Source: Seison nebaliae (Eukaryota). From it: a stretch of DNA of 20,000 nt. The position numbers and the translations under genes are program-made. Shown here one piece after another: positions 3,087 to 19,214 of this stretch (its first letter is position 1; every line of letters starts with the position of its first letter). Location of the stretch: contig JALJEE010003013.1 in the NCBI GenBank assembly GCA_023231475.1, forward strand, positions 53,066-73,065, in the 5' to 3' direction. The notes beneath the pieces were generated by a model. The model was given only the letters and a program-made list of their open reading frames with translations, did not search any database and was not told the origin of the DNA.

Positions 3087-5982
3087 ATGAATTTTTATTA
3101 TTTTCTTATATCAACTCTTGTTATCACGTTGGAGGCTTCTAAGAATAGATTAGGTGTTTATTACTCGTCTAATATTCCTCCTTGTTTTTACTGCGAGGGT
3201 GACACAATTGAAGATCTCAATTTCACATCAACATCCGAGTTGATTTGTAGGGACGAGAGTTCTAATTTAACGGTGAGTTCATTTGTCATTAACCAATACT
3301 TAATTATGTTTGGTAGCTTAGCTATGTATCACCAGAATCAAAGCCCCTTTGCTCCTATGACGAAGTTGAAAATTTTCCATCCCGCTCTGTGGTAAGAGTT
3401 TTCAAATTAACGTTAGTTCATCCTTCTTATTCAGATTTCAACCGAAATCAGATTTGATATGTACCGAAAAAAATTGGATTAAGTTTTTAGATTTTGAATT
3501 TATACTTTAACTGTTCTCAATTCGGATAGTCTTATAATTTATCTTATTTCAGTCATTTCTTCTTTTATTTCAAAATTTAAATTTTGATGAATATTGAAAA
3601 TAAATCTTGTTTGATTGTTTTTAGGAAAGAGCAACCAGTAATTCCCAAATTTACAAAAGATTATGAAGTTTTAGCGATTCTAGATCCGGAAAAATTATTG
3701 AAAACATTCGATGATGTACATTTAGTTATCACTTATACAGTTAAATTTTATAGAATTATTATGATTGATTTTTATTCATCAAATTATACAGCCAAATAAG
3801 AAGCAAGTAAAAATTGTTTCTCCTGAAGATTTTGCTCAATTGTCCGATTCTTCCCCTTCTGAACGGCCGACGATACGAACATTGCTCTCAACCACAACAT
3901 TGGAATCAACCACAGCATTAGAACTAACAACAACATTAGATCCAACAACTAAATTAAACCCAACAACTAAATTGGATACAACGATAAAATTGACTAGAAA
4001 ACGGTCAACAATTGTAACGATGGAGAAAGAGTGGAAAAAAAATAAAATGCCGATTCTCAATAATCCTATAATAAGTAAATCATTAGGTAATTCAAATGAG
4101 AAAAATGTGAAACCTCGATGGAAACATAAGAATGAATCAAGCCTAAACGAAAAAGTGAAAGATGAAGGATTGTCAATAAACGATATCTTGAAGATGGGAA
4201 GATTTAATTTTTCAGCGGAAAATGATATTTTCATACTGATCACCCAAAGTTCAGTTTTGACTTTGAGTAATGCTTATGTGAAAAATACTTGGATCACGAA
4301 TAGCGTTACAAATTTATTTTGTTTTTCAATAATAATGTAAAGTAATATAGATAAGAAATACGATTCGGAAATTAATGTGGAATTTAATAAGAGATCTACC
4401 TAAAAAGCATATCGAGGTGGCTATAGGTACATTAGGACAAAATATTAATAAGAAATTTGAGATCGATATACATTTCAGCATAAGAACGAGAAGATCGAGA
4501 CTATCAAGTCAGTATCCGGATATATTTCATACAAAACATCAGCTCGAAAGATTAATGAATGCAAAAAATTTTACGGATGTATATCAAAGGAGTTTAAGGT
4601 CATCAATAGCTTTAGAGTCGATAGGTTCCATATCCACCTTTCATAAATTTGTTTATTAAAAATATGTTCATTAATTAGCCCTTAAACCAGCTGTGGCGAT
4701 GGCATGGACTGTTAGAATTAAAAATACGGAACATCAAATTTTTCCCATTCATAAATGGTTTATAGTTGGTTGTTGTGCTCTAATGGGACTACTCATGGCA
4801 ATCATGCTAAGTTACCGATATAGGCATCAGATAAGAATGAAATGGCTTAAAACGAGGAAAGAAGTGAAAAAGATGTTTAAACGACGAAAATGGAGTGTAT
4901 TAGCGAAACAATCTGCAAACACTCCAGATATCTCTAAGTTTAATAGACGTACAACTGGTAGCGATCCAAAGAATTTCACAGAAGTTGACGAAGCAGAATT
5001 TGAAGAGTACGGAAAATTCTTCGGACCTTTCGGACATCGAGGTTCTTTTTCATTCAAAATATTTAAGTTTATTCTTATTTTAGTTAATTTCGCACGCAAT
5101 CGATATTATGATATACCTGAAAGTACTGTTGGATCTACAGAACTCTCAGTCTTATATTCGGGATCGGACAGAACTGGTAGAACAAGAGACAGAAATCGAC
5201 TTTCTAGAAACAAGTCCAAAGAATCCATCAAACACAAAGTATCAACATCGAAATCTAAGGCAGATGCTCGTAAATCGAAAATAGAAATGGAACCTAGAAC
5301 GGAAACTCGTAGAGCAAGGTCAGAACCGGTTGTTGAGATAGTAAGACCAAGGGGAGAATCATCGAGACCGAGAGGAGAATCATCTAGACAGAGAGTAGAA
5401 AGCAGACCCGAAACATCCAGATCTAGAGCGGATGCCTCCAGATACAGAGTTGAGTCTTCGAAATCTCGCGAAGATACTCGATCAAGAGTTGAACCTTCAA
5501 AATCGAAAGTAGAAACTTCCAAGTCGAAGTTAGAACAATCAGGATCGAAAGTAGAAAGATCAAAATCCCGGGTTGAAACATCAAAAACAAAAGTAGAACC
5601 TTCCAGATCAAGAGTCGAAGCGGGCAGATCTCGAACGGAACAATCTAAAACAAAACTGGAAGGATCTAAATCGAGAGTTGAAAAATCAAGATCACGAGTC
5701 GAACCGGCTAGATCGAGGACGGAAGGAAGAATTGATCAATCGAGGTCGAGAACGGAGGGAAGAGTAGATCAATCGAGATCGAGGACAGAAGGAAGAGTTG
5801 ATCAGTCGAAATCACGGACAGAATATAGACCTGAAAGAAAAGTGGAACCATCGAAATCAAGAGATATATCACTGAAGGGACAAAACAAAAACAAAGTTAT
5901 TTTCTCCGCCCCACAAAATGAGTCATCCACCCGAATGGATTCGAATAAACAAGGGTCTTCCAGATCTAGAACAAGACATTAA
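3087..5982 (+). CDS. Type I membrane protein: signal peptide, Cys-containing N-terminus, Thr-rich mucin-like stalk, TM helix, long Arg/Ser/Glu/Lys repeat cytoplasmic tail
   Basis: ATG 3087 begins MNFYYFLISTLVITLEA (signal-peptide-like). Introns 3277-3321 (in-frame, optional), 3365-3434, 3483-3624, 3740-3791, 4305-4350, 4625-4678 and 5042-5083 (in-frame, optional) link ORFs 3039, 3584, 3765, 4375 and 4693 without stops. TM WFIVGCCALMGLLMAIMLSY (about 4756-4815) is followed by basic RYRHQIRMKWLKTRK. Confidence 0.72.
3885..3992 (+). repeat. Coding 18-nt tandem repeat (LxxTTx, about 6 units)
   Basis: ttggaatcaaccacagca/ttagaactaacaacaaca/ttagatccaacaactaaa/ttaaacccaacaactaaa/ttggatacaacgataaaa = LESTTA LELTTT LDPTTK LNPTTK LDTTIK. 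Confidence 0.85.
5344..5817 (+). repeat. Coding tandem repeats: 21-nt (7-aa, VExS[KR]S[RK]) array, then three 33-nt (11-aa, TEGRVDQSRSR) units
   Basis: VEPSKSK VETSKSK LEQSGSK VERSKSR VETSKTK VEPSRSR VEAGRSR TEQSKTK LEGSKSR VEKSRSR VEPARSR, then 5719-5817 TEGRIDQSRSR TEGRVDQSRSR TEGRVDQSKSR. Confidence 0.9.
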
Positions 5983-6234
5983 CAATAACTTTATTAATTA
6001 ACTTCATAATTTTTTCAAAAAAATTAATTTTGAATAGAAGAATTTCAAATATTTCTTTCAGCGTATACATCTCATGTGAGTCTCAACTATTATCGACAAT
6101 TTCTATTATTGTACAATTTCTATTATAATTCGAAGAATATTATTGTTTTTTGTTTTAATTATTTCTAATTCAAATTTTTATTATTCACTTTATAAAAATT
6201 TTCTCTAAATTATTTCAAGTAAGATTTTAATTAA

Positions 6235-6815
6235 TTAATTTTAATTATTATTTATTGAAGTACAATCCCAATTAGGGTAAAAGAAAAAAAAAGAAATAAA
6301 TTATAAAAGATTAATAAGATCACCAAAATAATTTTTTAGACCGACAAAATTATTATTGTTGATTAGCTCACGGCCAAGTGAAATACTAGAGACAAGATCA
6401 CCCGGTATGTACTCATCCAACTTGAAGTTGTGTAGCATACCCCTGGCATCAGAGAGAGATGATGGATACGATAAATTATAATATGAACAAAAATAACGGA
6501 GAGGAGTGTTAAATTTCTCACATTGCGAGAATTCCGGGAAGGGAAACGGAGAGGTCAATATAGTTTCCGATAGCGAGAGATAACGATCAAGCATAATAAC
6601 CGGAAAGGGAGATAGTTCCACAATAGAAAACATGAAAGCCCTGCAAAACGGTCTAGGACGGCCCAGTAAGATACGAATGCACCGGTTATAAGCCTTATCC
6701 AAGGAGCCCATGGACTTATTAGAGATACCAAGAGACGCTTGAAGTCCATAGAACCCACAATAGAACGTGACGAAAAGTTTCATCTTCAATTTCACTGGAT
6801 AAAATTTACATTTAT
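6235..6815 (-). mobile_element. 5'-truncated non-LTR retrotransposon (post-RT C-terminal region, RTEX-like) with 3' AATAAA and TAA/TTAA tail
   Basis: ORF 6301-6795 KLKMKLFVTFYCGFYG...LDKAYNRCIRILLGRPR...AFMF matches the recalled LINE post-RT motif K..LF..YC..YG..W....L..AYN...R.LLG.PR.....MF. Intronless and GC-richer than flanks. On the minus strand the stop is followed by a T-rich stretch, then AATAAATAATAATTAAAATTAATTAATT. Clade assignment is tentative. Confidence 0.75.
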
Positions 6816-7384
6816 GATTTAATAATTAAAATAATTATTCAATTTAATTAAAGCAACTTTTAATTTTTTGAAGATAACATCTCTAAGGTAATTAGATTAG
6901 ACGCTTAACCTGAAAATTGAAAGTTTACATCTTTTAGAGATTTTATTATTCTCCGGTTCTTTCTTTAGCAGAATAAATGAAGAATAACTTCAGATATTGA
7001 TATTGAATTATTCTTAGAATTGTAACTATTATATGAAATGTTATGATCGATAAGAAATGTGCACGAAAAATATTCACGGAACTTCATAGTAGAAGGATAC
7101 GAAATTAGAAGGTTAAAGCAAAGAGAAGTGTATGATTAGAAGAGATTATTATGATGAAAAAAGACGTGTAGTGATAGAAGAGCTATAAAATAATGAATGA
7201 GAGAGAAAGAATTAAGAAATTTAAGCTGAATTATCATTCGGAAGATATTGAACATTCTGAATAATTGTCTCGTACCAGAGTCTTGTTACTAGATTGACGT
7301 AAGAGGAAAATAAATAAGAATATAAACAATCAAAGCCTTCATCAAAAAGCAGCAAAAAAACTTATATAATATTCGAGAGAGAAA

Positions 7385-10300
7385 ATGAGAAATATCCGTG
7401 GTGATACAATGCGAGGCTTGTCCGTTTTCATTTCAGACATTCGCAATTGTCGAAGTCGTGAAGCTGAAACGAGAAGAATTTTAAGAGAATTGGCAAATAT
7501 ACGATCGAAGTTTCGTGGTGATCGTGCACTGGATGGATATCAAAAAAAGAAATATGTTTGTAAACTAATTTTCATTTTCCTTCATGGATATGACATCGAT
7601 TTCGGTTATAATGAGGCGGTCAATCTTTTGTCTTCCAATAAATATTCAGAGAAGCAAATTGGCTACCTCTTCATTTCGATTTTAGTGAGTGCCGAGAATG
7701 ATTTGATGCGACTAATCATGCAGAATATCAGAAATGATCTTCAATCTCGCAATCCCATATTCGTTCAATTGGCATTGCAATGTATAGCGAATATGAATGA
7801 TAATCCGGAAATCGTTGAGATGGTAGGACAAGAAATACCAAAATTATTAATTTCTGGTGAATCCATTGACTCGATTAAACAAAGTGCAGCATTATGTTTA
7901 TTGAAATTAGTGAGATTACAACCAAATTTGATCGATCACGATTATGCTCCACGAATTATTCATTTATTAAACGATCAACATATCGGTGTAGTAACGGCAG
8001 CAACTGGTCTATTAGTCCAATTGTGTAAACAATTTCCAGAAGAATATAAGGGATGTGTATCATTGACAGTATCTCGTTTGTCACGTATCATTACCACATC
8101 ATATAAAGATTTACAGGATTATACTTATTATTTCATTCCTGCACCGTGGTTAGCTGTGAAATTGTTGCAAATCCTTCAATGTTATCAACCGTCAGAAGAT
8201 GCTGGAATTAGAAGTCGTTTAAATGAATGTTTGGATACGTTGTTGAAGAGAGTGGTGGATAATCCACGAACGAAAAAAACTCAACATTCCAATGCGAAGA
8301 ATGCTGTTCTATTTGAAGCGATTCTTCTTATTATTCATTTGGATAATGAACCGGAATTATTGATTCGTGCTTGTAATCAATTAGGCGTATTTCTCACTAG
8401 TCGAGAAGTGAATTTACGTTATCTGGCATTAGAATATATGTGTCTATTAGCAACTAGTGAGTTCGCTCATGAAGCTGTAAAGAGACATGATGAAACGGTT
8501 TGTGCTGCACTTCGAACAGAGAGAGATATTAGTGTTCGTCAGAAAGCTGTCGATCTTCTTTATGCGATGTGTGATCAAACGAATACGGAACAAATAGTTG
8601 AACAAATGTTATCTTATCTACAAGCGAGTGCAGCCGATTATTCGATCAGAGAAGAAATGGTATTGAAAGTAGCAATACTAGCAGAGAAATATGCCATAAA
8701 TACCAATTGGTATTTAGACGTCATGTTAAGACTGATTAGATTAGCGGGCGATTTTGTAAGTGAAGAAGTTTGGCAACGTGTCATCCATATCGTAACGAAT
8801 CGTCAAGAAGTACAAGGATATGCAGCAAAGACGGTATTCGAAGCATTGCAAGCACCAGCTTGTCATGAAAATATGGTGAAAGTTGGCGGTTATATTTTGG
8901 GAGAATTTGGGAATTATATTGCTGGTGATCCACGTTCATCACCCGAAGTCTTACTACAAATTCTTCATTCTAAATTTCCATTCTGTACTTTGTCCACGCG
9001 CTACATTCTATTAACGGCATATGTGAAATTTGCCAATTTATTTCCGGAAATGAGATCGAAAATTCTGGAAATTCTCCATTTGGATATGAACATCAGATCA
9101 GCTGATATCGAAATGCAGCAACGTGTATCCGAATATCATCAACTGATAAAGACGAGTTCTGATGATGAATTGGCTTACGTATTTGAGAATATGCCGTCAT
9201 ATCCAGAGAGAGAATCATCAATTCTTTTAAAATTGAAACAGAAGAAACAATTGACAAATGTCGATCATCCTTCTAATGGGAATGTCGATAAGAAGAATGA
9301 TGTCGTCTCATCATCAACTGCTCCTTTCAAAAATGATTTGTTAACTAATAAATCGAATACTTTATTAGAGAAAGCTAAAGTAGAATCTATCACTAATAAT
9401 TTATCTGGTCTCTTAATTGATGATTTAAATATGAATGATTCCTCTCAACCATCATCCAACGGAAACATTATCGATTCGTCCATCAACAACAAACCATTAT
9501 CCAACCAACCAATTCAACAACAACAACAACAACAACAACCAACAGCATCAATACCTAATAATAAAATAGAAACAAATTTGAATGATATTTTTGGTCTTGG
9601 ATCTACATCGACTGATGTACCATCATCCATCGTATCATCATCAATTTCGCCATTTGTCAACAATAACGAAATCGATATTCCGTCAAATGATAATTTGAAA
9701 AAAGCAATCATGAGACATTTGGAAGGTTTTGCAATAACCGAAGATAATTGTCGCATCGACATCACATGTGAAACGAAGAAGAATTTCTGTAAATTACAAA
9801 TAACTTTCTCTAATTCTGTTCCATCCTCCTTTGTCATGATTGACTCTTCGGATATCAATGTTCCAAAATTACAATTATTACAAAATAATTTATCATCCTT
9901 CACTGAACCGAAAGCATTAATCTTTACGGGACAATGTTCCCAAGTATTTCGCACTATCGACAATGCTTCATCCTTACCTGTCATCGACTTTAAGTTTTCT
10001 TCCTTTAAACATTTCATTTTTCTTCAATTCATTCTAGATTTGGTGAGAAAACTTACCATATGACATGTCCATTATTTCTCAATTATTTCGCTAGTGATTC
10101 ACCAATGGAAAAATCCGTATTCCAACAACGATGGACTTATTTAGCATCGTTATTCTTTATTTTCTTCTTTTACATAAAATTCAACATTCTCCTCAACTTT
10201 TTTTTCAATTGATTTTTACAATTTTTCATTCTGCATTTTTCTCTTCCTTTTTAGAAATGGGAAAATGACATCTAAAATATTCGAAGTCTCTTGGACATAT

Positions 10301-10653
10301 GAACCATCGATGAATAATATAATCGATTCGAAAGTTTCTTAAGATATTAATCTTTTTTCCTAATTCTTCTGTCATCTAGTTAATCGGAATGGGATTTGCA
10401 ATAATTGGAAAATCAGAACCGAATCAACTAGAATGGAATGGAGGTCTCATCGTCAATGTCAGTAGTCAAATGAAAGGTGTCTTGCACAAACTACGATATA
10501 ATCAAACAACACAAGTTATATTTTGTATTGAGAAATAATTAATTAAATCGGAAAATTTGTAAATAGATGTGGCAAACGGAAATCTTATCAACTCAACAAG
10601 ATGTTGCTGATGAAATTGCTTCATTGGTTGTCGCGAATATTTCTCATAATTAA
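7385..10653 (+). CDS. AP2A: AP-2 complex subunit alpha (alpha-adaptin), 1006 aa; exons 7385-9993, 10038-10148, 10255-10333, 10380-10514, 10567-10653
   Basis: Diagnostic N-terminus [14 protein letters not shown]...ELANIRSKF...[13 protein letters not shown] and trunk motifs [41 protein letters not shown]. Four introns restore the appendage platform domain (FQQRW...SKLIGMG...QMW...*), collinear with human FFQRW...AKIIGFG...QMYRL. Confidence 0.97.
9515..9538 (+). repeat. (CAA)8 polyglutamine tract in the alpha-adaptin hinge
   Basis: Eight perfect CAA units in frame within the low-complexity N/S/Q linker. Confidence 0.95.
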
Positions 10654-10821
10654 AAAGATTTTTAATGATTTCATTATTTATATTATTAGTCAACGAATTT
10701 ATTCAAAATTTTATTTCCATTCTAAATTTTCGGTCAATCGTTGAAGCTTTTCCTGTCTCTCCACATCATTTCATTCTCTCTTTCGATATTATTCGTGTTG
10801 TCAGTCATCATTAAAATTCCA

Positions 10822-12201
10822 TTAATCGTTCTCTTTATTAGTGCTACTTTCGGTAAAGCCTGAAAAATTATTTTAATGAAAATTTAATTTCATAATTAAA
10901 CAACTCACTTGTCGGTTTAATATCACCGTCTTCTTCTTCTTCAGAATAAACCGTCGTCAACCTTCTACTGACAATTTCTTTGAAAATTTTCTTTCCCATT
11001 TTTTTCATCAACTTTATATTATTCGGTTCCTTACAACATTTTAATCATGAATTTAAATAAGTTTAAAATAATTTAAAAAATAACTGCTGTGATCAATTCA
11101 TTTTGAACGGAAGAGATTTGCTCTCGAATTTCTTGTAAAGTAAAATAATCTAATATCTCCTCATCTGTTACTGTATCAGATTCAGTTTGAGTTGACAGAT
11201 CATCATCACCAAGTTCTAGATTCTATATTTATTTGAAGTTTTGACGAATTCAGAAAAATTAACATCATTTTGTATCTGTTCGTAGCTATTTATACTTGAT
11301 GCGTAACTGATTTCATGTTCTTTGTCCGTTTGTGACAAATCAACAATTGGTTGAGCTTCTCTTAACGGTTGTAATGGTTCAATAGCGTCGTTCAAATATA
11401 ACTTTTATGAAATAAATAAAGAATTTTTTTATAAGAAGTTATACCTTCTTTATCATCACATTTGTTCTTGGTGGTTTTGAGAAACTATGAGAGATTAATC
11501 CATATTGATCTAAAATACTAAATCGAACTATTATTCCAATCAAGTAAATATTTATAGAAAACCATTCTTTGCAGAATGTAATTACATCTTCTTTGTCAGT
11601 TAGAGTGAACACATCTTCAAGTTTATTAAGAATATTTTGTAATTCTTTCAATAAATCACATAATTCAACCAACTCTAACAAAACAGAAAAATTAGGTACT
11701 TTCAAAAATCTAAAACAAACCTCTTATTTTCGCGATAAGAAAAGTACAAATGGCATGGGCATATTTCATTTTTTCACAGAACTCTTCACTGAAGGGAACA
11801 TCACTAAATTTTTTTTCGTCGAGGAAGTACCAAAATAAGTAAGCACATAATTCCGAATAATAAGAAGCCATATGAATCGGTGTTGTCAATTGACTAACAG
11901 CAGTATTTTCATTTCCATAAGTATGAATCATAGAGAAATAGCTTAAAGAGTGATTGATCTCATTACCATTTCAAATTCTCAAAAAGAAAGTTAACTGAAA
12001 AACTTGAGATATAGACAAGTTTTTTACTTCAGGTGTATCAAAATGTAATGAATTTCCATCTCCGTCAATAACCAATCTTTTTAAACTGGCAAAATGAGTT
12101 TCGGTTAAACTTCCGTAAGTGGAAAGAAATTCATCCTTCCACTGAACTTCAGTAGCTTCGTCAGTTTTTGTCGTTTTATTTGAATCGTCCTGCGATTTCA
12201 T
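10822..12201 (-). CDS. Seven-exon gene of unknown function (helical N-terminal half, acidic C-terminal half)
   Basis: ATG 12201 (MKSQDD...). Introns 11942-11995, 11675-11720, 11402-11444, 11223-11263, 11030-11084 and 10860-10908 (or 10860-10904) join ORFs 11971, 11710, 11439 and short downstream exons (LYLNDAIEP, NLELGDDDL, EPNNIKL) in one frame. Confidence 0.7.
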
Positions 12202-12586
12202 GATAATTGATTTAATCTTCACTATGCCAGTTATAATATTAATTATCTATGGATTACGGTTACTTAGTAACAAGAAATAAAAATTTGGCGGAAATGGAAT
12301 ATTTTATTTGCTTCTCTTAATTTTTGAATTAAAAGCCTTATATTTATCGATCATCCATATGTGTTAATATCATTATTCTGTTAAATAAATATTTATATAG
12401 TTTCTATATTTAAGCAATTAACACTATTAATTAGAGTTATTAAACAAATTAATTTAAAAAATTAAAAGAATAAATCTTCAATTAAATTATCAGTTTAAAT
12501 GTTAAGCTTTTATCCGTCATCTATCGAGAAATAGATATAATAGTCAACAAATCCATATATTCTCCTCCAAATTTTTATTCATTAAA
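12202..12586. promoter_or_regulatory. Putative 385-bp bidirectional promoter between head-to-head genes
   Basis: Divergent ATGs at 12201 (-) and 12587 (+); very AT-rich; contains TTTGGCGGAAA (E2F-like) near 12283-12293. Motif function is unproven. Confidence 0.45.
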
Positions 12587-13645
12587 ATGGAAATGATATC
12601 GTTTAACACTGACCATGGATACCTGGAAGGATTATTACGTGGTTTCCGTTCCGGTATTCTTACGACGAATGATTACTTAAATTTGACTTCATGTAATTCG
12701 TTGGATGATTTAAAATCGGTTTTACAAGCGAAAGATTATGGTCAATTCCTTGCAAATGAGAGTAGTGTTTTAACAGTCGCCCTAATCGATGAAAGATTGA
12801 GAGATAAATTAGTCATCGAATTTCAACATATTCGAAGTCAGGCAGTTTCGCCATTAAGTAAATTTTTAGATTACATCACATATGGTTATATGATTGATAA
12901 TATTATTCTGCTGATTACGGGAACTCTTCATCATCGATCATTGAATGAATTATTAAATAAATGTCATCCATTGGGTAGTTTCGAACAAATGAAAGCTATT
13001 CAAGTTGCATCAACATCAGCTGAATTATATAATGCGATTATTGTCGATACACCTTTGGCACCATATTTCCAGGATTGTGTTTCAGAACATGATTTGGATG
13101 AATTGAATGTGGAAGTTATTCGGAACACTTTATATCGTGCTTATCTTGAAGACTTTCATGCTTTCTGCAAATCACTTGGTGGTTCTACAGCCAATGTGAT
13201 GTGTGAATTATTGGCATTCGAAGCAGATCGACGTGCCTTCCTTTTAACTATCAATTCATTCGGCACAGAATTAACTAAAGATGATCGTTCAAAACTCTAT
13301 CCGAAATGTGGGAAATTACATCCGGAAGGATTGGCTAAATTGGCGAATGCTGACGATTATGAACAAGTTCATCGTATAGCTGAAATGTATGATGATTATC
13401 GGAAAATTTTCGATGAAGCAGATACTGGACTTACTGGTCATTCGGGAGAGAGAAGTGTTGAAGATCGTTTCTTCGAGAAGGAAGTTCATCTCAATAAACT
13501 CTCTTTTCTCCAACAATTTCATTTCGGCATATTTTACAGTTATGTCAAATTGAGAGAGCAGGAATGTCGGAATATCATTTGGATAGCGGAATGTGTGGCT
13601 CAACAACATCGTACTAAAATCGATGCATATATTCCAACATTCTAA
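12587..13645 (+). CDS. ATP6V0D1: V-type proton ATPase V0 subunit d, 352 aa, intronless
   Basis: Full-length match to family motifs [82 protein letters not shown]. Confidence 0.98.
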
Positions 13646-15901: not shown

Positions 15902-18900
15902 TCATTCATCGCCATTGAACTTTCCGATAGTTTTATTCTTAACCAATTGATAATACTCATAAAATTTCATTTTTTCTGTCACATGGTTAATTTTTTCAAA
16001 TAGCAAATGATTCTTATTTTTTGCATCAGTCGGGAAGAGAAATAATGAATAAAACCCAGAACTTTTGAATGCAAACTGATTACGAGTGGTGGGACGGTAG
16101 ACAATGGAGAATATCATCTGAAAAATAAAATACTAATTTTAACAAGAATTTTTTAAATTGGATAAGTTAAACAATACCATTGTCTGGTTTTCATATGAAT
16201 TAATTTATTTTTCGATGTTCTGCTGTTCGACTAACCAGAAAAGAAGAAAAACGATGTTTTACAAGTCAGAAGATTAGGTTTTTGATTTTAACTGATTAAA
16301 TTTCGTACGGAAGCTTTGTACGATTAATGTTCGGTGGTTGTCGTATGGAAATTCGTTACCTACACTGAGTGCAAACTAGGTTGTGCACCGAGAGCAGCGC
16401 AATTGGCACGAGTATTCTGATCGATTTTCTTGAATGGAAATCCATCCATATAGGAAGAGATATTTGAACATTATCGATTCGGTGCAAAATTTGATCTCAC
16501 AGAGCCTACTTTCGTACAGTGCGAAACCGAAAATTCTCCAATCAAATTTTTCTGCAGTTATTACTCTTTAAGTTCTCGTGAATCGTATGGTGACGCGTCT
16601 TCGATGCTGTCAAATTTCTCTATTGATTCTTATATACTGAAGAATCAGTTGGTATCTGGTAAGAATCTCATTATCAATAACTCCTCCAAAGAGTTATCTT
16701 CTTTTCTATATAATTTGCTCCGTGGGGATTTTATTTATTAATAAAAAAAAATTAAAAAAATTAGTGTCAGAAGTAACAAATTACGTCAGCCTGAACCAAT
16801 CGAGTTTCTATTAAAATAAGATAAGATAATTTAACGAAAACCACATAAAATAAAAACCTTCATTTGTGGGAATTTCGGAAAATGAAGTCATTGTCTGGTT
16901 GATCCAATTACTGTAATCCATTGTATTAGAGAAACTTTCATCATGTAGTTCTTTTTCATTACCACTTTCCAAATAGAATTCAACTCTCTTTTTCTTATTT
17001 TTGTCGAAGACGTGAAACATAACTGATCGGTTTCTAAACAAATGGAATTAAACAAAATAATGGGAAAAGGAAACTTCGCTTGTTCCGATGACGATTTCAT
17101 CGATCCTTTCATTAAATACTCTTCTTGAAAAATTGCATCTTTCTGTTGAATGAGAGAAATTTTTGCTGAATGTAAAGTAGTAGCAATTTGTTTCTTTAAA
17201 TCTGGTGAAATTTCAGATTGGTCGATCAATGACATAATTTTCAAATCGATCATTGTTCTTGTGAGAATATTAATTTGTCGAATAATTTTTATCATGTTGT
17301 TGGAATGTTTATGACCGTGTATTTTCGCCAACGACTGCTCATCATATAAACCAACTGAGGAAAAATAATTGTCGATAGATAAATATTTATCTGTCTTCTT
17401 TGTATCTTCAAGCAATTGTTGAAAATTATATTTTAATAAATTTTGTAGGTTTTTTCCCGTTAATCTCATCTGGATCTTCGTTGCTTCCTTAGTCATATTC
17501 AGAACAAATAATTCCAATGTTAATGTAATGGACAAAGTCAATGAAATTGTGTTACTATATTTGTATTCGTCGAGAATGAGGACCCAATATTTCACTGGAT
17601 GATGTGTTAATAATTCGTCTAGGAACTGTTTGGCAAATCCTTTCTTATTTCCAGTGTCAATCAATTGGTCTAAAATCCATTCAATTGTTAAATTGATGAG
17701 TGGTGGGTGATGAATCTCTAAAAATAGGATAATTTGACGATCTGAACATTTTGAAAGGAAGAATATGAACTTTTCATAATTTCACATATTCTCAAAACAA
17801 TCTCATCGGAATTTAAGGGAATTTTCAAAAATTCTAATAATGAAATGAATAACAATCAACATTTAAATTTCATCAACCTTTTGTTATATCATCGATATTA
17901 GTGAGAGGAGCATTTTCAACCAAATCTTTTGGAAGTCCAAATAAAATTTTGAATAAATTCTAGTGAGAACAAATTAATTTATTTATATCGTATATTTATA
18001 TTAATTATACAACTATTATAAACCTGTACGTATTTCCCATCGGAATCATATCGATAATTATTGTAATCATTCAAAAATAATAAATTCCCCAAATTTATTT
18101 TTATATCATAAAATATTTCATCCGAATATTTTCCATCAAATAAATTGTGAGTTAATAACTCCAAGTTCTCTTCCACTTTATCTTGATAGAAAATTTTGTA
18201 ATGTGAGTCCAGTTCAATTTTTCTAATGAGAAAATTTTCTTTAATTCCCGTCGTCCAACCTTTCTAAAATAAGTGTTATGATATTAATAGAAATAATATG
18301 AATAAACGAACATGTATTTGAAGAAATTTAATTTTGAGAGTTTTTGCAAATGAATTGAAAATATCGAAATAATTCGAACTTGAAGGCACTAAATATAATA
18401 AAAGAAGTTAAATAATTTTATTTAAAAAATTTACCGTTCATAAATAATCTTACCGAATTCTCCCATTTCGCCTCTCCGTCTTTGTTTTGGAAAAATTTGG
18501 TTATATTCAAAAATTTCTTCAAAAAGAGAATGATTTTAAACAAAATATTTTTATAAAATTTCGAACCTCGTTTGTTGACCGATTCATGGAAAGAAATAAC
18601 ATGGAAAAACCACCATATCGGGCCGATAAATTATTAAAAATTTTTTTCCCATTTGCTGTAACAGCAAATTCTACAATGTCAGAAATTATCGATCTATTTT
18701 ACGCCAAAAACAATTATGGGAAGAAAAATAAAAATTATTAATAAAAAAGATGAAATTATTAAAGATCGGAGAAATAACGGAATAAATATTGGATTAATTG
18801 GATCTTCGTTATCATTTATTGGTTGATCTGAAATATTCTCCGTAGTCTGAGGAGGAACTTGATTTGCATAAGTCTAAAGAAATTATTAAAAGAAATAGAT

Positions 18901-19214
18901 TGTAAAATTAAAACTATCAAAGGCGATCCCTTTAATTCCGTAACTGATTGATTGACATATTCAATTTCAATTGAATCTTCAGATAAATCGTTTTGTAGAA
19001 AACGTTGTTCATTCTTCAAATCATTCGTTTTGGAAAAGAGGAATTGATTTCCCTTCAAATATTTAACCATAATCTTTGTTGAATGACTGAATTTTTCAGG
19101 ATTTATGTTATCTCTCACAAAAATATTTTCATTAGAATAATTGAATTTGATAAAGGAAAGATTATTTACCATTAATTCTTGAAGATTCTTAACGACATCG
19201 TCTGGGAATTTCAT
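15902..19214 (-). CDS. Large multi-exon gene of unknown function; both ends uncertain
   Basis: Introns 18874-18914, 18694-18778, 18517-18566, 18389-18453, 18264-18307, 17960-18023, 17834-17877, 17718-17770, 17034-17074 and 16808-16857 join ORFs 18816, 17979, 16888 and 16811 into one stop-free frame. A longer intron (about 16231-16784) holds a retroelement. Exons below 16230 and above 19214 are not resolved. Confidence 0.65.
16290..16762 (+). mobile_element. Second, decayed 3' fragment of the same non-LTR retrotransposon family, antisense within an intron
   Basis: Stop-free frame 16454-16741 encodes QCETENSPIKFFCSYYSLSSRESYGDASSMLSNFSIDSYI, aligning with QCEKFNTPLRYFCSYYNLSYPSSLSDARGMLHNFKLDEYI of ORF 6301-6795. 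Upstream frameshifted pieces YGSFVRLMFG and KRYLNI resemble YNRCIRILLG and DRYLSL. Ends in AATAAAAAAAAATTAAAAAAA. Confidence 0.75.

Follow-up and report, generated by a model that had tools for sequence, protein, structure and literature searches.

The stretch analysed here (hereafter the window) is a 20-kb segment of nuclear DNA from Seison nebaliae, a seisonid rotifer (contig JALJEE010003013.1), with a G+C content of ~30%. Three of its genes contain annotated introns: the AP-2 alpha-adaptin gene SNEBB_007915 (positions 7385..10653, forward strand), the propionyl-CoA carboxylase beta (PCCB) gene SNEBB_007918 (13901..15728, reverse strand) and an orphan gene, SNEBB_007916 (10822..12201, reverse strand). 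A purine at intron position +3 is among the least variable traits of animal introns and mirrors the 5' end of the small nuclear RNA (snRNA) U1, which is conserved in animals. Most introns of these three genes begin with GTT. They are known here from DNA and from deposited protein models, and we mapped the deposited proteins exactly, residue by residue, onto the window. Over positions 7300-12400, the contigs of public sequencing runs are unspliced DNA that retains the introns and shows no joints, and they are uninformative on expression. The intron set of this single window comprises 16 annotated introns (4 in alpha-adaptin, 5 in PCCB and 7 in SNEBB_007916), which sit in 5.7 kb of coding sequence, and 15 predicted ones. 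We call the nine introns of alpha-adaptin and PCCB homology-anchored; each has a single GT-AG solution.

The deposited alpha-adaptin (P0001, 1006 residues) is 100% identical to the window and maps onto five exons (7385-9993, 10038-10148, 10255-10333, 10380-10514 and 10567-10653, with the stop codon TAA at 10651-10653) separated by four introns. At each junction, 2-5 cut pairs yield identical amino acids, and exactly one of them is GT-AG. With a slash marking the exon-intron borders, intron 1 (9994-10037, 44 nt, phase 2) reads TAA/GTTTTC...TCTAG/ and is the sole GT-AG of five solutions; it contains no second GT. Intron 2 (10149-10254, 106 nt, phase 2) reads ATC/GTTATT...TTTAG/, the sole GT-AG of two solutions. 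Intron 3 (10334-10379, 46 nt, phase 0), AAA/GTTTCT...TCTAG/, is the sole GT-AG of three solutions and has stop codons in all three frames. Intron 4 (10515-10566, 52 nt, phase 0), CAA/GTTATA...AATAG/, is likewise the only GT-AG of three. The four donors proposed in the initial annotation, at 9994, 10149, 10334 and 10515, are thus in place, and the mapping of the deposited protein gives the same introns. Their -1 bases are A, C, A and A, and their +5 bases T, T, C and T.

One might suspect an annotation artefact, in which the alpha-adaptin transcript ends at the stop codon of the long open reading frame (ORF), at 10063, and the downstream 'exons' are a decayed remnant. The gene model is known from DNA, and tblastn searches of the window with the alpha-adaptins of Brachionus and Lingula at an E-value of 1e-3 matched the large exon and missed the small C-terminal ones, both of which would fit such a view. 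Because of this, we took support for the small exons from exact mapping, alignment and Pfam profiles. A protein search with ORF 7370-10063 gave 4077 proteins with E <= 0.001 among 7996 candidates scored; P0001 was the best match and the next-ranked ones were animal AP-2 alpha-adaptins, the best with 51-54% identity. In the spliced protein, Pfam detects Adaptin_N (E 1e-136). It also finds Alpha_adaptin_C complete (E 9e-11), with residues 887-998 matching positions 1-112 of the 113 in the profile; this domain crosses three of the junctions and, at 42.3 bits, exceeds the cut-off of 25.4. Each of the four pieces reads open in the needed frame, single GT-AG solutions join them, and the C-terminal exons, when aligned with six animal homologues, are colinear through to the usual C-terminus of the family. 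The alignment is irregular at two places only, namely at junction 1 (a gap of four residues) and within exon 3 (an insertion of three residues). Moreover, three junctions match intron positions in other animals, as described below. A decayed 3' end is therefore very improbable.

Other features of the gene deserve mention. The appendage Ig-like subdomain (Alpha_adaptinC2, PF02883), which is precomputed in most homologues, was undetected in P0001, and residues ~700-880 (window positions ~9480-10020) align poorly with the homologues. A (CAA)n tract at 9507-9553 encodes the poly-Q run of the alpha-adaptin hinge, and the contigs of all four public runs break there. A good conventional donor, G/GTGAGA, is found at 10042-10047, five bases inside exon 2; it is unused according to the deposited model and to homology. 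The first 869 codons (7385-9993) are intron-free and all four introns lie within the last 137 codons, while alpha-adaptin loci of other animals have many introns across the former region (e.g. at the equivalents of residues 21, 92, 157, 244, 477 and 530). This distribution is the opposite of the 3'-biased loss expected under reverse-transcript-mediated loss.

The second homology-anchored gene, PCCB, lies on the opposite strand. Its deposited product (P0121, 100% identity) maps exactly, with five introns of 44-52 nt (15455-15409, 15168-15117, 15005-14962, 14334-14287 and 14166-14120), each the single GT-AG solution. The Carboxyl_trans profile of Pfam is matched over its full length (positions 1-493 of 493, E 1e-186), across all five junctions. 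All five donors begin with GTT and have A at -1, and one has G at +5 (GTTTGG). Taken together, the nine anchored introns have T at +3 in nine cases, A at -1 in eight, G at -1 in none and G at +5 in one, exactly the tallies that had been reported from the sequence and that the mapping of both proteins now bears out.

The third gene, SNEBB_007916, also maps exactly to its deposited product (P0241), with seven introns of 41-55 nt (11995-11942, 11720-11675, 11562-11518, 11444-11402, 11263-11223, 11084-11030 and 10908-10860). Five of its donors are GTT, one is GTA (11444) and one GTG (10908). Pfam assigns no family to this protein, and hence its junctions are supported by the deposited prediction and open-frame continuity only. 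The frame is thus restored with homology in 9 of the 16 annotated introns, and as an open frame only in the remaining 7.

Across the 16 introns, GT-AG borders are universal, 14 begin with GTT and two have a purine (R) at +3. A is found 11 times at -2 and 11 times at -1 (p=0.006 for the latter), and the AA dinucleotide 8 times (p=2e-4). The following positions are mixed, with 7 A and 7 T at +4, 8 T, 4 A and 3 G at +5, and 8 T, 4 C and 3 A at +6. Donor information is therefore confined to A at -2, A at -1, G at +1, T at +2 and T at +3, and +4 to +6 show background composition. Fifteen of the introns fall within 41-55 nt and are rich in T and poor in G; intron interiors contain 48.6% T and 6.1% G. 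The acceptors are TAG in ten introns, AAG in five and CAG in one. In several introns, e.g. 10515-10566, a polypyrimidine tract is unclear. None of the 16 donors is of the U12 type (/RTATCCTT).

The extended animal consensus MAG/GTRAGT, with R at +3 and G at +5, is a tendency and no strict requirement. Seison donors depart from it at both positions: 2/16 have R at +3, and 3/16 have G at +5. Compared with CAG/GTAAGT, the used donors match at 3-7 of nine positions (median 4), and unused GTs within exons do no worse, in line with the very weak fit to animal donors expected in the initial annotation. Its statement that the introns lack G at +5 holds in that the usual enrichment has disappeared, although three donors retain this base. 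The parallel statement for G at -1 does not generalize. Three of the seven SNEBB_007916 donors, and 3/16 overall, have G there, which is no depletion relative to the 18.7% G of exons (P(<=3)=0.65).

Compositional drift might account for the T at +3. Positions +3 to +6 would then be unconstrained, and the T would merely mirror T-rich introns. The interiors are indeed 49% T and +4 to +6 resemble background. With T at 0.486, the four alpha-adaptin introns by themselves give P=0.056, which is not significant, and the claim therefore stands on replication. As decoys, excluding annotated donors, we used GTs that are followed by an AG at a distance of 40-60 or 38-110 nt and whose composition is no less intron-like than that of the poorest real intron. 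GTT makes up 47% and 45% of the decoys in the two length classes, giving P ~1e-3 for 9/9 and P ~1e-3 for at least 14/16. This null is conservative, because unannotated true introns remain among the decoys. Similarly, GTT is found at 14/16 used donors and at 78/264 GTs within exons of the three genes (Fisher 5e-6). Within the introns, T at +3 exceeds T at +4 to +6 (14/16 vs 23/48, p=0.008), and A occupies +3 once in 16, compared with 33% A in introns. Thus, T at +3 is a specific signal beyond a general T-rich stretch, and drift is an unlikely explanation, all the more so as AT-rich loci of other animals with short introns keep GTA or GTG (see below). The AAGTT motif by itself is insufficient to define an intron. 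Eight copies lie unused in exons; the sequences downstream of them contain more G than real introns (0.19-0.33 vs 0.02-0.17) and are mostly poorer in T.

We also used a gene finder independent of the annotation. It relies on codon usage, on intron base composition (the first six and last three bases being skipped) and on GT..AG spacings of 38-130 nt, with no donor context. The finder, blind to +3, recovers all nine anchored introns and four of the seven of SNEBB_007916. In the latter gene, it uses a GTC donor at 12016 in place of the GTT at 11995, retains intron 11562-11518 and leaves the last intron unused. Two orphan regions contain 15 introns predicted by the finder, and GTT begins 12 of these (P 0.006-0.01 relative to the decoy rate). 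One candidate gene (3587..6222, forward strand, score 22) has six predicted introns, four of them short and with GTT, at 3740-3791, 4305-4350, 4625-4678 and 5042-5083. The other (16995..19214, reverse strand, score 12) has nine, eight of them GTT. Both are of low confidence, Pfam assigns no family to their ORFs, and they provide weak corroboration of a GTT norm.

The initial annotation had read the GTT donors as a property of the splicing system rather than of one gene. The third gene (5/7), the blind finder (12/15) and the GTA donors found at the same positions elsewhere all point that way; the Seison evidence comes from one window, and to that extent the generalization stands only in part.

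To place the donors in an animal context, we scanned metagenome contigs with the Brachionus alpha-adaptin, which yielded 66 loci. None of the 66 was assignable to an intron-bearing rotifer gene; the sole one closest to Brachionus (L001) is an intron-free single high-scoring segment pair. Of 97 junctions in 17 loci, a junction solver could settle 31. We removed L064 and L017 as apparent near-duplicates of L053 and L016, which left 28 junctions in 15 metagenomic animal loci, with 20 GTA, 6 GTG, 1 GTT and 1 GC donors. AT-rich loci with short introns are informative as to composition. L034, L053, L016 and L040 (28-33% G+C, introns of 52-65 nt) have a purine at +3 throughout, and with L064 and L017 included, nine junctions of this type keep GTA or GTG. 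Composition and shortness alone thus do not yield GTT.

Introns 1, 2 and 4 of the Seison alpha-adaptin gene coincide in codon and phase with introns of these control animals that bear GTA donors. The site of intron 1, within the codon after ..IDF (phase 2), is shared with L034 (donor GTAAGA). That of intron 2, within the codon five residues past a conserved RW (phase 2), is shared with L033 and L044 (both GTAAGT). That of intron 4, ahead of a conserved MY/MW..T (phase 0), is shared with L033 (GTAACG) and L053 (GTACGA). Intron 3 has no shared position among the resolved control junctions. The three shared introns are thus inherited ones, and their donors were likely converted from GTR to GTT in place. 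Shared positions with GTA donors argue that the reading of donors changed, rather than that new introns were inserted with their own ends. A recent origin from a mobile, introner-like element carrying its own ends would agree with the uniform length (41-55 nt) and composition of the introns. However, the window contains no repeat family of at least 40 nt, the intron sequences have no evident common motif beyond their ends, and alpha-adaptin introns 1, 2 and 4 (three of the four) occupy ancestral sites, so that recent insertion is highly improbable.

How such donors might be recognized was addressed by pairing comparisons. With the canonical 5' end of U1, ACUUACCU, 12 of the 16 donors form just two contiguous pairs (G+1 and U+2), and the mean contiguous run is shorter for used donors (2.6) than for unused exonic GTs (3.1). 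Among U1 registers from -5 to +3, none does clearly better than decoys. With AAGU placed on U1 nt 3-6 (the -4 register), the mean run is 3.8 vs 3.3 for decoys, too slight a difference to build on. A shifted or bulged U1 register occurs at some human sites, and the GTT donors could be ordinary GTRAGT donors that lie one base further on (GTT-RAGT) and that standard U1 reads. However, none of the 14 GTT donors has G+6 T+7 or A+5 G+6, and the +1 register gives runs of merely 2-3 pairs. We regard this explanation as the least probable of those considered.

The reading that we prefer, with a probability of about 0.5 including its mechanism, is that the four GTT segments are very short GT-AG introns of alpha-adaptin and that AA/GTT is the normal donor signal of this rotifer, not the quirk of one gene, in a system with canonical U1. 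Ancestral GTR donors would have been converted in place as the reading machinery changed. Introns would not be selected through the classical pairing of U1 with +3 to +6. Rather, they would be defined as whole short units by the five-base core AAGUU together with a short, T-rich, G-poor body. Loop 1 of the U5 snRNA is U-rich and is a partner for exon-end bases. The A residues at the exon end would pair with this loop, and the G in the ACAGA box of U6 would wobble-pair with U(+3). A standard U1 would be retained and contribute little. Possible pairing of U(+3) with the ACAGA box has been argued for Entamoeba in the part of a preprint drawn on here (Roy & Bowser, bioRxiv 10.1101/2022.06.08.495308). 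The persistence of GTA and GTG donors (2/16) seems to indicate that the Seison system tolerates the canonical form.

The main rival is that the 5' end of U1, or of a dominant variant of it, co-evolved to pair with AA/GUU through a U-to-A change at position 6 and a C-to-U change at position 9. This would allow five Watson-Crick pairs from -2 to +3, and a leftover canonical U1 copy would serve the few GTR donors. Such a U1 would explain both the A at -1 and the U at +3 by two base changes. It would also fit the fact that the donor information forms a single contiguous block from -2 to +3 and the poorer pairing of canonical U1 with real donors than with decoys, and a mix of 14 GTT and 2 GTR donors is compatible with two U1 variants. 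The conservation of the U1 5' end in animals speaks against it. The same preprint, as far as it is used here, offers precedents in Entamoeba and Mastigamoeba; it also indicates that a standard U1 was retained in the majority of lineages whose donors are atypical, and it links such changes to intron-poor genomes, which contrasts with the 16 introns per 5.7 kb of coding sequence found here. That Seison rewrote its 5' splice-site code to AA/GUU across many introns, with the 5' end of U1 co-evolved to A at nt 6 and U at nt 9, is a tentative proposition, which we consider possible and less probable than a standard U1 acting with U5, U6 and intron definition. Our preference for standard U1 is based on its retention by most lineages with atypical donors and on the persistence of GTA and GTG in Seison.

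Several points weigh against the preferred reading. Pairing with U6 predicts some preference for U at +4, G at +5 and U at +6, and little of it is seen (G at +5 in 3/16). A changed U1 explains the preference for U at +3 at least as simply, and it accounts for both deviations at once. Which snRNA reads +3 is the weakest step of the mechanism. The animal control is partial, as about two thirds of the junctions tried were left unresolved by the solver. The introns are deduced from the DNA of a single 20-kb window, their excision being taken from gene models. Lastly, 7 of the 16 come from a homology-free deposited prediction, and 15 more from low-scoring predictions of the gene finder.

The window contains further features. 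A V-ATPase subunit d gene (12587..13645, forward strand) consists of a single exon that matches the complete Pfam profile vATP-synt_AC39 (positions 1-339 of 339, E 2e-102); this intronless complete ORF is flanked by two intron-bearing genes, and it served solely as codon-usage training for the gene finder. ORFs 6301-6825 (reverse strand) and 16454-16741 (forward strand) encode paralogous peptides (45% identity over 76 residues, E 4e-17) without a Pfam family, and the two ORFs lie inverted relative to each other on either side of the conserved gene block. A 435-residue ORF at 4675-5982 (forward strand) is rich in SKSRVE/SRSRTE-like repeats and belongs to no family; a long open frame is found on the opposite strand at 5106-5735. 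ORF 3792-4304 had zero matches among 1.8 billion representative proteins, itself included. The region around the latter ORF and 4675-5982 may be unannotated. A search of the window against Rfam gave 0 matches.

A term search of the main texts of the Seison genome paper (PMC8351084) and of a 2025 rotifer paper (PMC12256650) gave no statement of a splice-site consensus for Seison. A paper on lamins (PMC10125929) mentions alternative splicing in Seison and, in the part consulted, no donor consensus. We found no report of a GTT-donor norm for Seison, other rotifers or any animal in the literature, supplements and the annotation paper of Hagemann et al. 2024 (Hydrobiologia) lying outside the search. 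According to the sections of PMC8351084 and PMC12256650 that we used, the Seison genome, directional RNA sequencing and small-RNA data are public.

An animal with U at +3 in ~85% of its donors would be a natural experiment. It raises the question of how tens of thousands of 45-nt introns might be found on so little donor information, and that of the co-evolution of U1, U5 or U6 with splice sites in an intron-rich genome, which touches on the debate between selective loss and co-evolution as presented in portions of 10.1101/2022.06.08.495308. Should the co-evolved U1 be the correct explanation, Seison would provide the first example among Metazoa and the first from an intron-rich genome, contradicting the view that co-evolution of snRNAs and splice sites needs prior massive intron loss. 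In practical terms, gene finders and splice-aware aligners trained on the animal consensus will mis-score Seison donors. The weight of the finding for splicing evolution would be high if genome-wide data and the U1 sequence agree; at present the small, DNA-based sample limits it.

The finding appears to be a lineage-specific transformation of the donor consensus, that is, of a known kind, here in an intron-rich animal. Two classes of 5' splice sites have been distinguished in work on U6 N6-methyladenosine (m6A) in plants and Caenorhabditis elegans, namely U5-dependent AG//GU and U6-dependent //GURAG sites. In our preferred reading, the Seison donors would resemble the AG//GU class in that the information is on the exon side and leans on loop 1 of U5. 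They differ from it in having AA at -2/-1 and U at +3, where that class has AG and a purine.

The closest parallel at +3 is Entamoeba, with its transformed donor GUUUGU(U) (GUUUGU in 88-90% of introns) and its co-evolved U1, as reported in the part of the preprint cited (10.1101/2022.06.08.495308). In both systems, U replaces the +3 purine (lineage-wide in Entamoeba, in 14/16 donors in Seison), and the donor is unable to pair with standard U1. Entamoeba is described there as a protist that has few introns and a strict motif of seven bases, in contrast to Seison, an animal in which a gene can hold many introns. The Seison donors do not follow GUUUGU, with T at +4 in 7/16, G at +5 in 3/16 and T at +6 in 8/16, and a single GTTTGT; on top of this, they have an exon-side preference for AA that is not part of the Entamoeba signal as given in that text.

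Yeasts, Giardia and Trichomonas, as summarized in the same preprint, have GUAUGU donors and an unchanged U1. Like those of Seison, these donors mismatch standard U1; there, the mismatch is without U1 compensation, which makes these lineages a model for the reading that we prefer. Going by that summary, they differ from Seison in that the change is at +4, with A at +3 kept, and in being intron-poor with strict motifs.

Finally, Fritillaria borealis, a tunicate, has abandoned GT/AG in 95% of its introns, with U2AF paralogues and snRNA m6A adapting, according to the part of the study used here (Soo et al., NAR 2026, PMC13326754). Both are animal lineages with shifted splice-site rules, the shift being genome-wide in Fritillaria with the core spliceosome kept. 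In contrast to Fritillaria as so described, Seison keeps GT-AG in 16/16 introns, and what has changed is the extended donor context and the -3 base of the acceptor.

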